7,567 nucleotides of DNA from a virus (lineage: Duplodnaviria; Heunggongvirae; Uroviricota; Caudoviricetes): IMG/VR virus record IMGVR_UViG_2690316028_000015; one strand, 5' to 3'. The position numbers were made by a program, and so were the translations under genes. Position 1 is the stretch's first letter. Every line of letters starts with the position of its first letter. Below, in pieces: positions 4,601 to 7,091 of the stretch. The notes under the pieces were generated by a model that saw only the letters and a list, made by a program, of their open reading frames with translations, made no database searches and was not told where the DNA came from.

Positions 4601-4769
4601 TATCGCGTCCTCAACAATGAATTTTGTGATGCAGTGCCTGGTGCCTCCAGGTGACGTTAACCAGTTAACAATTAACGCCGGATACAGAGAATCCACCCAT
4701 AACACTGTTTTTGGTTTTAACTGTTCCGCGTGCGCTTAGCCGCATTCACCGCATCACAAAATTCACTTT

Positions 4770-4827
4770 AAAAACGGCGGCAGAGCAGTCACGGAGTAAA
4801 ACTGATACCGCCAAACGTCACCAGAAA
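4770..4827 (-). ncRNA. dicF: DicF small regulatory RNA (Hfq-dependent, targets ftsZ and other mRNAs), including its 3' stem and U-tail
   Basis: The reverse complement of 4770-4827 reads TTTCTGGTGACGTTTGGCGGTATCAGTTTTACTCCGTGACTGCTCTGCCGCCGTTTTT. This matches the DicF sequence as I recall it, ends in a GC-rich stem plus T-run, and lies about 170 nt upstream of dicB. Confidence 0.75.
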
Positions 4828-5648: not shown

Positions 5649-5801
5649 TCAGTCAGTGTTTCTGGCTAACCAGCAACGCGCGCCAGATTCGGTTTTAAAC
5701 GTTTTGCTTTTGGTATATGTCATCGCGGTGAACGTACCGTCCTGGTTGGGGAACACGCCACATACCAGAGATTCGCTGTTGCCAAGATCGATAGTATCCA
5801 T
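5649..5801 (-). CDS. ydfA: Small protein YdfA-like (50 aa), first gene of the leftward operon
   Basis: Internal ATG at 5799-5801 with GAGG 6 nt upstream. The 102-aa extension would begin upstream of the operator/promoter and is rejected. The product MDTIDLGNSESLVCGVFPNQDGTFTAMTYTK... has the size and position of K-12 YdfA. Confidence 0.65.
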   Translation of the reverse strand: MDTIDLGNSESLVCGVFPNQDGTFTAMTYTKSKTFKTESGARCWLARNTD

Positions 5802-5877
5802 GCTGACCTCATTTCCCCTTAACGCCGGGGTAGCGGAACTGTTTGCTGAGAACACCGTGCGGTGTGTTGATGGAGGT

Positions 5878-5930
5878 AATTTAGTTTTCTCATTATTTTT
5901 CGTCAAGGTTTTTTGATGAGAAAACTCAAG
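5878..5930 (-). promoter_or_regulatory. Leftward early promoter with two operator copies (OL/PL-like, PdicB equivalent)
   Basis: On the minus strand: -35 TTGACG (plus coordinates 5901-5906), 17-nt spacer, -10 TAAATT (5878-5883). Operator TGAGAAAACTCA at 5917-5928 and a one-mismatch copy TTAGTTTTCTCA at 5881-5892 overlap the -10/spacer. Confidence 0.55.
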
Positions 5931-5993
5931 TATTGGCGCAAGATAAAGCCAATACATTGAAATGTAAGGCTTTAAAATTTTGTGAAGGGATGA

Positions 5994-6401
5994 TTATTGA
6001 TGCTTGTTGCGTTTGCGAGCCTCTAATAGCTCGGTGAACAGGCGATTAAAATTCTCAACGCGGGCGCGGAGTTCGCTGAGTTGTGCTTGTTGCTCTGATT
6101 TAGGAAGTGCGCGATACAAACGCAGCATCTCTAACTCATCTTCCGATAAGTCTAAGGCACTATCGAGTGAAACAGGGGGAGCTGGTGTTTTGTCCTCGTC
6201 GCCAAACAGTATCCAGGTTGGTGAACATTGCAATACCTCGGCGAGGCGATGCAAATTTTGCCCACGCGGGGCTGTATGGTCACTTTCCCATAATGAAATT
6301 GATGAGCCAGATACGCCAGCAGCTTTGCTTAAACCGTTTTGACTTAAGCCTACCTGCTTACGTCTTTCTCTAATGCGTTGACCTAAAGTTTTCTCGTTCA
6401 T
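5994..6401 (-). CDS. dicA: DicA-family HTH (XRE/cI-like) repressor of the leftward operon
   Basis: 135-aa product from the ATG at 6399-6401, with an N-terminal HTH (LGQRIRERRKQVGLSQNGLSKAAGVSGSSISLWE) and the segment SPTWILFGDEDK that I recall from K-12 DicA. It lies between the two operator clusters. The 152-aa call adds 17 residues that run into the operator region. Confidence 0.85.
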   Translation of the reverse strand: MNEKTLGQRIRERRKQVGLSQNGLSKAAGVSGSSISLWESDHTAPRGQNLHRLAEVLQCSPTWILFGDEDKTPAPPVSLDSALDLSEDELEMLRLYRALPKSEQQAQLSELRARVENFNRLFTELLEARKRNKHQ

Positions 6402-6478
6402 ATTTAGATATCTTAATAACCCTTGACTTGAGATTCCTTGAGTGATTAGCATTGAGAAAACTCAATATTGGAGGTGCG
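6402..6478. promoter_or_regulatory. Divergent promoter/operator region between the repressor and the cro-like gene (OR-like)
   Basis: Perfect 14-bp palindrome TTGAGAAAACTCAA at 6452-6465 plus TTGAG-containing repeats at 6428 and 6438. Candidate rightward -35 TTGACT at 6423-6428, and GGAGGTG RBS at 6470-6476 for dicC. Confidence 0.55.
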
Positions 6479-6706
6479 ATGTTTAAATCAGACGTAATTA
6501 ATTTTTACGGTACGAAAGCCAAAGTAGCGAAAGCTGCTGGCGTTGACCCATCTGCTGTTTCTCAATGGCAAGAGCTGGTTCCTGAAGGTCGCGCGATGCG
6601 TCTACAGGAGGCATCTGGCGGCGAGCTTCTGTATGATCCCAAGGTTTATGACGAATATCGTAAGACGAAGCGGGCGGGGCGGTTGAACAATGAAAATCAC
6701 TCCTGA
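6479..6706 (+). CDS. dicC: Cro-like small HTH regulator (DicC/YdaS-type)
   Basis: 75-aa product from the ATG at 6479, with a strong GGAGGTG RBS. It is transcribed divergently from the repressor. The TTG start at 6452 in the ORF track lies inside the operator palindrome and is rejected. Confidence 0.8.
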   Translation: MFKSDVINFYGTKAKVAKAAGVDPSAVSQWQELVPEGRAMRLQEASGGELLYDPKVYDEYRKTKRAGRLNNENHS

Positions 6707-7091
6707 ACAGGCTCGTGAGGCTCTGGATGCCTGGATATGTCGACCAGGAATGACACAGGAGCAGGCGACGATATTAATCACTGAAGCATTCTGGGCTTTG
6801 AAAGAGCGCCCGAACATCGATGTTCAGCGTGTCACAGATGAAGGTGGCGCGGTTGATCAGCGAGCGCTTGGCGTTAATCGAGTGAAGATATTCGAACGCT
6901 GGAAGGCTATCGACACTAGGGATAAGCGTGAAAAGTTCACGGCGCTAGTGCCTGCAATTATGGAGGCTACAGCGAGATCCATTCTGGGTAAAAAACATCA
7001 TGAGCCCGTCAAAACTCCGCGAAAAATGGGACGAACTGGTCATCCGCTTGGGACGTTCACCTGTACAGCGTTGTGTGAATCATATTTCTGA
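6690..7091 (+). CDS. Hypothetical early-right protein in the cII/YdaT position (133 aa)
   Basis: ATG at 6690 overlaps the dicC 3' end by 17 nt. The position immediately after the cro-like gene is as in Rac ydaS-ydaT. No motif I can name. Confidence 0.6.
   Translation: MKITPEQAREALDAWICRPGMTQEQATILITEAFWALKERPNIDVQRVTDEGGAVDQRALGVNRVKIFERWKAIDTRDKREKFTALVPAIMEATARSILGKKHHEPVKTPRKMGRTGHPLGTFTCTALCESYF

Follow-up and report, generated by a model that had tools for sequence, protein, structure and literature searches.

The window analyzed here (the whole stretch of 7,567 nucleotides) contains, with a probability of roughly 85%, a lysis-lysogeny-type immunity switch of a Qin-like lambdoid prophage of E. 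coli lying beside rspB, which is built like the K-12 dicA-dicC-dicBp locus and would have a different repressor/operator specificity. The sequences, positions, homology, mosaic boundaries, and conservation described below for this DicA/DicC-type locus are direct observations. The gene order is as in Qin, with divergent repressor and DicC genes and the dicB operon downstream of the repressor; the leftward promoter lies directly past the repressor gene, ahead of ydfA...DicF-dicB-ydfD, and predicted dyads overlap the analogues of the dicCp -10 and of dicBp (Table 1). The layout of the switch is textbook, and the allele is an ordinary variant within a well-known system. The operators of this TTGAG/CTCAA immunity type appear to be undescribed, and a literature search for the TTGAG-type operator string found no matching description.

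Table 1 Positions of the immunity-locus and leftward-operon features in the window
Feature	Positions	Strand	Basis or remark
DicF	4775-4826		Rfam, 72.5 bits
ydfA-like DUF1391 gene, first in leftward operon	5649..5801	-	Pfam DUF1391 E=4e-27
Leader inverted repeat, ACACCG-TG-CGGTGT (RNA ACACC-GCAC-GGUGU)	5852..5865	-	read from sequence
Immunity cassette (mosaic block)	5873..6580	.	sliding identity to K-12 Qin; megablast
Leftward promoter (dicBp / PL analogue), TTGACG-17-TAAATT	5878..5906	-	promoter scan
OL1 operator (predicted), AATGAG-AAAA-CTAAAT (minus strand)	5879..5894	.	2 mismatches to dyad
OL2 operator (predicted), GATGAG-AAAA-CTCAAG	5915..5930	.	3 mismatches to dyad, all outer positions
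DicA-subfamily repressor, 135 aa	5994..6401	-	NCBIfam NF007257, 239.4 bits
Oa-equivalent operator (predicted), ATTTAG-ATAT-CTTAAT	6402..6417	.	2 mismatches to dyad; adjoins repressor ATG
Rightward promoter (dicCp / PR analogue), TTGACT-18-TAGCAT	6423..6452	+	promoter scan
Om-like site, CTTGAG-ATTC-CTTGAG	6427..6442	.	read from sequence; half-site
Oc-equivalent operator (predicted), ATTGAG-AAAA-CTCAAT	6451..6466	.	perfect dyad, 0 mismatches
DicC / P22-Cro-like second repressor, 75 aa	6479..6706	+	NCBIfam DicC; Pfam P22_Cro

The repressor matches NF007257 over residues 1-135 of 135, at a score that compares with a cut-off of 101 bits and with 234 bits for K-12 DicA itself. It is composed of an N-terminal P22-C2-like HTH domain and a short C-terminal domain; phmmer aligned residues 1-72 without gaps to the N-terminal domain of P22 C2 (1ADR, E=8.3e-16; 2R1J, E=4e-15), and Pfam gave HTH_3 / HTH-type domains only (residues 6-71), detecting no S24/LexA-type autocleavage domain in the 135-aa protein. 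The longer ORF of 152 aa from ATG 6452, a start annotated in phage HannyBb, was rejected because the homologues (DicA, P22 C2, and RefSeq) align from the Met at 6401 and because 6452 falls inside Oc. Identity to K-12 DicA is 57% overall and about 47% over the N-terminal HTH half, which bears out the first-pass annotation in its claim that the DNA-reading region differs substantially from that of K-12 DicA. Helix 3 reads SGSSISLWESD here versus SHVSVSQWERG in K-12 DicA, differing at positions 32, 33, 37, and 40. In P22 C2, Val33 and Gln37 contact the TTAA half-site (PMC5175364); both are kept in K-12 DicA and are replaced by Ser33 and Leu37 in the window repressor. The divergent Cro-like gene, whose ATG is 77 bp from that of the repressor on the opposite strand, scored 165.3 bits with NCBIfam DicC (cut-off 130) and 59.3 bits with Pfam P22_Cro (cut-off 30.2; E=3e-16), and is preceded by the RBS GGAGG (6469-6473). 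Its product is 70% identical to K-12 DicC, with a single difference from VPEGRAMRLQ onward.

The source for the K-12 Qin dicA-dicC-dicBp immunity locus is reportedly Bejar et al. 1986/1988. Further sources are Yun et al. 2012 and Ragunathan et al. 2023. Like the window, K-12 Qin has a 135-aa DicA-subfamily repressor without a peptidase domain, a divergent gene for DicC (75/76 aa), a dicB operon (ydfA, DicF, dicB, and ydfD) directly downstream of the repressor, and 6-4-6 dyads placed equally relative to both promoters and the repressor ATG. In a sliding comparison with K-12 Qin, identity stays at or above 90% up to about 5873 and again beyond about 6580 and falls to 40-65% in the interval, and megablast against K-12 and BL21 covered the flanks only. 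As judged from these identities, the sharp drop at 5873-6580 therefore marks a swapped immunity cassette. The cassette comprises the repressor gene together with the operators and promoter on its left and the operators and promoters on its right, and it extends through the first third of the cro-like gene, which encodes the HTH. At the equivalent positions, K-12 Qin has different palindromes, GTTAGT-N4-ACTAAC (K-12 operator definitions being second-hand, via PMC10448788 and PMC3441716), and dyads of 6-4-6 form, specific to each type, stand at these positions in K-12, BL21, and PPompW alike. Three operators have been described at each of dicCp and dicBp in K-12 (PMC10448788).

The palindrome set of the window consists of four 14-16-bp sites of the type TTGAG-AAAA-CTCAA and one half-site, all located in the two non-coding gaps on either side of the repressor gene. 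Three of them, read as TTGAGAAAACTCAA (6452-6465), TGAGAAAACTCA (5917-5928), and TTAGTTTTCTCA (5881-5892, the reverse complement of TGAGAAAACTAA), had been noticed in the first-pass annotation as copies of a 12-14-bp element on both sides of the repressor gene. Their coordinates proved exact on re-reading, and the element is real; the count of three missed the fourth site (6402-6417) and the half-site (6427-6442), and the conserved core is 14-15 bp long, the outermost positions of the 16-mer being variable. The Oc-equivalent takes in the last 2 bp of the rightward -10 together with the +1 predicted at about 6459. Its position matches that of K-12 Oc (TTGTTAGTTATGACTAACAA), a site bound by DicA in vivo that overlaps the dicC -10 (PMC3441716). 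The Om-like site, with a good left half-site (5/6) and a poor right one (3/6), overlaps the 3' end of the rightward -35; it is the weakest of the candidate sites, and its position carries cognate-type half-sites in the BL21 and PPompW types. On the left, OL2 (about -59 to -44) is separated by 9 bp from the -35 of the leftward promoter, on its upstream side, and OL1 (about -23 to -8) overlaps the -10 and spacer of that promoter; at the place of OL1, K-12 carries ATTAGCCATGACTAAC. A hairpin, GTATTGGC-N10-GCCAATAC (5931-5956), was considered as a third left operator and dicA terminator and was discarded; its left arm is population-variable and absent in strain 2015C-3905.

A promoter scan of 5780-6500 returned only two sigma-70-like sites, both overlapped by dyads. 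The earlier observations that the repeats overlap the leftward promoter (-35 TTGACG, -10 TAAATT) and precede the cro-like RBS both hold, one copy lying on the leftward -10, one upstream of its -35, and one over the rightward -10/+1 just ahead of GGAGG. The rightward promoter aligns with K-12 dicCp (TTGACT-17-TATCTT), the transcription start of which has been mapped by 5'RACE (PMC3441716). The repressor's own promoter is a weak consensus match only, with a -10-like TAAGAT (6415..6410, minus strand) inside the Oa-equivalent; a TA..AT hexamer is present 8-9 nt ahead of the repressor ATG in 4/4 immunity types, without a good -35.

The conservation of these sites was analyzed in a population sample of 83 loci (51 distinct sequences) of the same immunity type. 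A scan of viral contigs returned this immunity type only (96-100% identity) and hence served population footprinting, not wider co-variation. The Oc core is invariant and the OL2 core (5917-5929, with hypervariable flanks) and OL1 core (5879-5893) are nearly so, while the Oa-equivalent is identical in 83/83 loci and the Om-like site in 78/83. Highly variable columns were absent from the operator cores versus 24 of the 93 other columns in the left gap (Fisher p=0.0008; right gap, p=0.012; 83 loci), a pattern that supports purifying selection on the cores. In Buttiauxella, whose repressor is 74% identical, ATTGAGAAAACTCA and ATTTAGTTTTCTCAAT are kept with diverged spacers, the Oc core and the entire Oa-equivalent are conserved, and ATTGAGAAAACTCAGT stands at the OL2 position. 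Of 5,426 complete E. coli genomes, about 800 (about 15%) carry this immunity type, as do at least two sequenced phages; HannyBb and mEp460_ev081 encode a repressor identical to that of the window, which supports its function in live phages.

We infer binding, repression, autoactivation, the induction route, and heteroimmunity of the 135-aa repressor from the sequence, as follows. A repressor dimer would read the 14-16-bp dyads, (A)TTGAG-AAAA-CTCAA(T). On Oc, it would block the rightward -10/+1 and keep the DicC/Cro-like gene and early-right genes off, and on OL1 and OL2 it would bracket and occlude the leftward promoter, silencing ydfA-DicF-dicB-ydfD-exonuclease-xis-int. By analogy with K-12, the Oc-bound repressor may also aid its own weak, near-leaderless promoter, with the -10-like hexamer within Oa, until surplus repressor or the Cro-like protein fills Oa and repressor synthesis is turned off; autoactivation from Oc and shut-off at Oa would together make the circuit bistable. 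Because the repressor has no peptidase domain, induction would be expected to occur through an antirepressor (compare Rem and the Gifsy antirepressors) or switch flipping rather than by RecA-mediated cleavage. No antirepressor candidate was found within the 7.6-kb window, so that any such gene would lie outside it; K-12 rem is located about 3 kb right of dicC.

The repeats might be a chance A/T-rich similarity in promoter DNA without operator function. The 10-mer TGAGAAAACT occurs in three exact copies and one with a single mismatch (expected, 0.76), a count of four reached in 0/200 shuffles; however, four different 10-mers are present at least three times in the window, 42% of the shuffles have at least one such 10-mer, duplicated 12-mers are likewise common in shuffles, and degenerate dyad matches are expected about four times per window. 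The bare repeat count was therefore dropped as an argument for significance, a triplicated 10-mer being unremarkable by itself after look-elsewhere correction, and the case rests instead on placement, dyad symmetry, and conservation. When up to 3 mismatches to ATTGAG-N4-CTCAAT are allowed, the window has four matches, and all of them lie in the gaps on either side of the repressor gene, within about 270 bp of 7,567 bp (chance of the order of 1e-6). They show dyad symmetry, overlap both promoter-like sites that the scan returned, occupy the proven Oc position of K-12, do not vary among 83 loci in which the surrounding DNA does, and are kept in another genus, leaving chance similarity very improbable. 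A more serious possibility, though still an unlikely one, is that only the perfect dyad Oc (perhaps also OL2) is a true repressor operator, and that Oa, the Om-like site, and OL1 are mainly Cro/DicC sites or otherwise conserved promoter sequence; the switch would then be simpler than a three-plus-two operator system. In the K-12 in-vivo assay, only Oc bound DicA and Om and Oa did not (PMC3441716), so that Oa, the Om-like site, and perhaps OL1 may, by analogy, be Cro-type sites, cooperativity-dependent, or inactive. Moreover, Oa is similar across heteroimmune types and its -10-like hexamer could alone account for its invariance, and OL1 overlaps the -10 TAAATT, which is itself constrained. Nevertheless, the conserved block at OL1 runs 10 bp past the -10 hexamer (5884-5893) and is invariant beside a hypervariable spacer, OL1 and Oc change together from one immunity type to another, and the 22-fold repression of dicBp by K-12 DicA needs at least one left operator (PMC10448788).

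The locus could be homoimmune with K-12 Qin, its specificity unchanged despite drift, as the two share the repressor family, the 6-4-6 dyad geometry, and TT at half-site positions 2-3. This is highly improbable, because the half-sites differ at 4/6 positions (ATTGAG here versus GTTAGT in K-12) where a single substitution in K-12 Oc abolishes DicA binding (PMC3441716), three DNA-facing helix-3 residues differ, and the mosaic boundaries are sharp, as is typical of immunity swaps. In addition, at up to 3 mismatches, neither the K-12 dyad was found in the window immunity region nor the window dyad in that of K-12. The first-pass annotation had suggested a different immunity specificity, a claim that would fail if repressor and operators were identical to those of K-12 Qin; alignment with K-12 dicA-dicC shows both to be unlike, so that this identity does not hold, and the separate palindromes, helix 3, and swapped cassette lend the suggestion computational support. 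About equally improbable is that the immunity repressor has a further operator in the leader inverted repeat, which was confirmed in sequence and location as previously read in the operon leader. As DNA, this repeat forms a perfect 6-2-6 palindrome, closely following the start site of the leftward transcript (about +7 to +20); its sequence, however, is unrelated to the TTGAG dyad, and it lies outside the cassette in the conserved flank, identical in the K-12, BL21, and PPompW types and hence in four heteroimmune DicA-type prophages, so that their different recognition helices would not be able to read it. It is absent where a non-DicA immunity region joins, and Citrobacter, Enterobacter, Buttiauxella, and LSJC7 retain a hairpin whose sequence has changed, a pattern more in keeping with a role as RNA or in structure; these hairpins were compared visually, since the 3' arms were poorly registered in a MAFFT alignment of leaders from five genera. 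The thermodynamic fold of the leader gave an MFE no better than shuffles (z=0.15), and a permissive Rfam scan of 5780-6000 returned sub-threshold noise only, with no leader match. By its distribution, the repeat belongs to the flank common to the putatively heteroimmune DicA-type prophages and not to the immunity-specific operator set.

Among other known systems, phage P22 immC resembles the window in the homologous N-terminal domain of C2, in a Cro of the P22_Cro family, and in dyad operators with a 4-bp A/T center (18 bp in P22, ATTTAAGATATCTTAAAT), to the consensus of which Oa (ATTTAGATATCTTAAT) is close; in contrast, C2 is RecA-inducible, with an S24 self-cleavage domain at its C-terminal end, whereas the window repressor is short and without S24, and its main half-site is TTGAG, not TTAAG. 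Lambda CI/Cro likewise has divergent repressor and cro genes with operators overlapping PR/PRM and PL, right-operator centers spaced by 24-25 bp, and a repressor mRNA that is probably leaderless. The window differs from lambda with its OR1-3/OL1-3 in having a repressor of a fold lineage unrelated in detail, with a P22-C2-like N-terminal domain and no S24, and in its left promoter, which directly follows the repressor gene and is bracketed by two sites at a distance of 36 bp from each other. DicA has been grouped with the short, non-cleavable Gifsy repressors, natural variants of which read different operators and are heteroimmune (PMC3121763). The Gifsy-1/2/3 repressors GfoR/GtgR/GfhR (Lemire et al. 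2011) are antirepressor-controlled; the window has neither an antirepressor gene nor a LexA box. The present analysis defines an operator set and cassette boundaries for a common, uncharacterized DicA-type immunity group and adds nothing conceptually new to the lambdoid switch paradigm. Heteroimmunity would explain the coexistence of several Qin-like prophages without cross-repression, and the locus may offer an orthogonal repressor/operator pair, a natural specificity variant of the P22 C2 fold.

Repressors with ..SISLWES.. in helix 3 occur with CTCAA half-sites and those with ..SQWER.. with CTAAC/CTAAG, an association that does not represent independent events, the SISLWES types being mutually related (65-74% identity). 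A tentative and rather doubtful extension is that the window repressor is a natural re-specification of the P22-C2/DicA fold, in which every residue that canonically reads bases has changed (Asn/His32 to Gly, Val33 to Ser, Gln37 to Leu, and Arg40 to Ser) and TTGAG is recognized through another set of contacts, for example, with loss of the Val33 thymine-methyl pocket and more indirect readout of the invariant AAAA center. If so, this allele and its K-12, BL21, and PPompW relatives would constitute a graded natural series for the recognition code of the fold.

The leftward promoter is followed, in gene order, by the ydfA-like gene, a 125-aa ORF, DicF, dicB, ydfD, exonuclease, xis, and int. The ydfA-like gene is annotated alike in CP53 and K-12, and DicF is the sole Rfam match at the gathering threshold. 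The arrangement of dicB and ydfD is as in CP53, and, unlike in K-12 Qin, the 125-aa ORF takes the place of ydfB and ydfC.

A Qin-like lambdoid prophage adjoining rspB makes up the window, whose segment 5640–6720 is 99.9% identical to E. coli CP53. Gene order and geometry are as in K-12 Qin, whereas the dyads at the same positions differ; in a sliding comparison, mosaic junctions were located at ~5873 and ~6580, with identity to K-12 of at least 90% outside and 40–65% inside. Judged from sequence, the block between them is a classical immunity cassette made up of operators, repressor gene, and the HTH-coding part of cro. The repressor scored 239 bits against the NCBIfam DicA subfamily model (curated cut-off, 101) and the Cro-like protein 165 bits against the DicC model (cut-off, 130). 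A domain search revealed only an HTH domain in the repressor and no S24 peptidase domain; residues 1–72 aligned without gaps with the solved N-terminal domain of P22 C2 (E = 8e-16). Because the DicA and P22 C2 alignments and the RefSeq annotation support ATG 6401 as the start, a 152-aa form beginning at an upstream ATG inside Oc (5994–6452), as annotated in phage HannyBb (L003, 2450–2908), was rejected. An identical 14-nt coding stretch, AAAGCTGCTGGCGT, occurs in the repressor gene (6313–6326, minus strand) and the cro-like gene (6530–6543, plus strand), encoding K-A-A-G-V in the HTH of both proteins and forming a 14-bp inverted repeat on the chromosome, ~200 bp apart.

Features of the prophage, with putative operators named after the K-12 dicA-dicC sites (Oc, Oa) or placed at the leftward promoter (OL1, OL2)
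Feature	Position	Strand	Detail
Integrase, excisionase, 823-aa exonuclease		minus	
ydfD, dicB		minus	
DicF sRNA	4775-4826	minus	Rfam, 72.5 bits
125-aa ORF		minus	
ydfA-like DUF1391 gene	5649-5801	minus	
OL1	5879-5894		2 mismatches to dyad
Leftward promoter (dicBp/PL analogue)	5906..5878	minus	TTGACG-17-TAAATT
OL2	5915-5930		3 mismatches to dyad
135-aa repressor gene	5994-6401	minus	
Oa-equivalent	6402-6417		2 mismatches to dyad
Rightward promoter (dicCp/PR analogue)	6423..6452	plus	TTGACT-18-TAGCAT; consensus promoter scan
Fifth, half-good site	6427-6442		CTTGAG-ATTC-CTTGAG; between Oa and Oc
Oc-equivalent	6451-6466		0 mismatches to dyad (perfect)
75-aa P22_Cro/DicC-like gene	6479-6706	plus	
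YdaT-like ORF	6690-7091	plus	
DUF977 ORF		plus	

The first-pass annotation had noted one element on both sides of the repressor gene, overlapping a leftward promoter and preceding the cro-like ribosome-binding site. Direct reading of the sequence confirmed TTGAGAAAACTCAA at 6452–6465 and TGAGAAAACTCA at 5917–5928, and TTAGTTTTCTCA at 5881–5892 is the same element on the opposite strand with one change. Extended by one base on each side, the element becomes a 16-bp 6-4-6 dyad, ATTGAG-N4-CTCAAT, whose four matches in the window at ≤3 mismatches all lie in the gaps on either side of the repressor gene. A consensus promoter scan returned exactly two sigma-70-like sites within 5780–6500, recovering the proposed leftward promoter. 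The reported overlap also holds: OL1 lies at ~−23 to −8 of this promoter and OL2 at ~−59 to −44, while Oc, which takes in the predicted rightward start site (~6459) and the last bases of its −10, stops 3 bp short of the cro-like gene's GGAGG. The three right-gap sites have centre-to-centre spacings of 25 and 24 bp. Oa adjoins the repressor ATG and includes a −10-like TAAGAT, 8 nt upstream of the ATG, with no usable −35; since the equivalent hexamer is similarly arranged in other immunity types (TAGCAT in K-12, TAGAAT in the BL21 and PPompW types), the repressor promoter is presumably weak, near-leaderless, and activator-dependent.

The repeat count alone proves little, because at least one 10-mer in three copies occurred in 42% of shuffles, the window holding four such 10-mers; the 10-mer TGAGAAAACT itself had four matches at ≤1 mismatch against 0.76 expected, a number reached by 0 of 200 shuffles. 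Variation among relatives was analyzed in 83 loci of the same immunity type (51 distinct sequences), 80 from a viral-contig scan and three others. The operator cores (5879–5893, 5917–5929, 6402–6417, and 6451–6465) contained no highly variable columns, against 24 of 93 in the left gap outside them (Fisher p = 0.0008; right gap, p = 0.012). As the outermost positions of the 16-mer vary, the putative functional core is 14–15 bp, close to the 12–14 bp first noted for the element. At the rightward −10 (6447–6452), 15 of the 83 loci have the stronger TACTAT in place of the window's TAGCAT, which on sequence is natural variation in the strength of the PR analogue. The stretch separating OL2 from the repressor stop codon holds a hairpin GTATTGGC-N10-GCCAATAC (5931–5956) that is terminator-like, being followed by TTGAGTTTTCT on the minus strand; a conserved terminator is improbable, the left arm being hypervariable among the 83 loci and absent in strain 2015C-3905.

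K-12 Qin carries GTTAGTTATGACTAAC before dicC (Oc), GTTAGCTAATGCTAAA at the dicA ATG, and ATTAGCCATGACTAAC and GTATGCTATAGCTAAC around dicBp, and the BL21 and PPompW types have their own dyads, GTTAGA-N4-TCTAAC and CTTAGG-N4-CCTAAG, at equivalent positions. K-12 Oc, which overlaps the −10 of dicC, is bound by DicA in vivo, and a single base change abolishes this binding, whereas Om and Oa were not bound in the same assay (Yun et al., PMC3441716); according to Ragunathan et al., who found DicA to repress dicBp 22-fold, dicCp and dicBp have three operators each (PMC10448788). The K-12 dyad had no match within the window's immunity region, nor the window dyad in K-12, and the repressors are 57% identical, so that the identity with K-12 Qin that would speak against a distinct specificity was not seen. 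Identity between K-12 DicC and the Cro-like protein is 70%, with one difference from VPEGRAMRLQ onward.

The predicted divergence of the DNA-reading region was borne out at residues 32, 33, 37, and 40, which are Gly, Ser, Leu, and Ser in the window repressor versus Asn, Val, Gln, and Arg in P22 C2 (gap-free numbering) and His, Val, Gln, and Arg in K-12 DicA. In the P22 C2-operator complex (consensus, ATTTAAGATATCTTAAAT), Val33 fits into the pocket formed by the thymine methyls of TTAA, Gln37 touches a half-site thymine, and the 4-bp centre is not contacted (PMC5175364). By homology, the half-site shift from TTAG/TTAA to TTGAG would accompany replacement of these residues. Among relatives from a species-level genome scan, Buttiauxella gaviniae has a 74% identical repressor (helix-3, SDSSISLWESD), an exact Oa, ATTGAGAAAACTCA at Oc and OL2, and ATTTAGTTTTCTCAAT at OL1, with unalignable DNA between the operators. 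CTCAAC half-sites occur in Citrobacter braakii and Superficieibacter (helix ..SISLWESD), and CTAAC or CTAAG half-sites with all ..SQWER.. repressors compared. Because operators and recognition residues both differ, the prophage should be heteroimmune to the K-12, BL21, and PPompW types. Architecture, family, heteroimmune variants, and operator logic are already established (PMC10448788, PMC3441716, PMC3121763); the window's operator sequence and its pairing with a SISLWES-type recognition helix appear undescribed, the operator string having turned up in none of the papers searched.

Repressor dimers on Oc would block the rightward promoter and those on OL1 and OL2 the leftward one, keeping DicF, DicB, YdfD, and the recombination and excision genes silent. 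As in K-12, the repressor probably activates its own promoter from Oc; occupation of Oa by the Cro-like protein or by excess repressor would turn that promoter off. Since the repressor lacks a cleavage domain, inactivation is expected through an antirepressor (K-12 Rem; the Gifsy paradigm, PMC3121763) or stochastic flipping of the switch (PMC10448788).

The inverted repeat ACACCG-TG-CGGTGT noticed at 5852–5865 (ACACCGTGCGGTGT) is indeed present; it lies close to but outside the cassette, at ~+7 to +20 of the leftward transcript. Because the K-12, BL21, and PPompW types all share it unchanged, a role as an immunity-specific operator is excluded; the segment is replaced where a non-DicA immunity region joins ydfA (APEC O1, S1-CAM-02-A). 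In other genera, a hairpin is kept at this position, though its sequence is changed (Enterobacter, AATCAC...GTGATT; Citrobacter, GTAACCAC...GTGATTAC). A second leader hairpin (5817–5845; minus strand RNA, GUUCCGCUA-CCCC-GGCGUUAA-GGGG), CCCC-GGCGTTAA-GGGG with the GTTCCGCT motif, lies ~10 nt upstream of the ydfA ribosome-binding site; hairpin and motif (5817–5840) are kept in APEC O1 (LexA-type repressor) and S1-CAM-02-A (PaaR2/ParE-type). Compensatory substitutions between genera (CCCT/AGGG, GCC/GGC, GCCT/AGGC) are seen in its stem, which encloses a conserved loop, GGCGNUAA, and a related ACAGTTC(C/T)G motif occurs in Rahnella, Symbiopectobacterium, and E. whittamii leaders. The fold is thermodynamically not unusual (z = 0.15) and neither hairpin matched an Rfam family; a 5′ leader RNA structure is probable, on thin evidence.

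At least 80% of a 1,081-bp query was present in ~797 of 5,426 complete E. coli genomes, and phages HannyBb and mEp460_ev081 encode an identical repressor. Two GTDB contigs labeled as belonging to metagenome-assembled genomes of a Bacillota (L007) and of Veillonella parvula (L008) carry the window's immunity region with 100% protein identity, almost certainly by binning contamination. The YdaT-like ORF is 90% identical to 173-aa homologues over its first 93 residues only, followed by an unrelated 40-aa tail, suggesting deletion or rearrangement at ~6969; in the near-identical CP53 prophage, this gene is interrupted by IS5, and the right arm is probably defective. Finally, the dicF-dicB transcript could fold into a long-range duplex, a candidate RNase III site, through a perfect 15-nt inverted repeat (minus strand, 4618–4632 and 4751–4765) whose arms, ~118 nt apart, are TGAATTTTGTGATGC, immediately 3′ of the DicF terminator, and GCATCACAAAATTCA, 17 nt before the dicB ATG.
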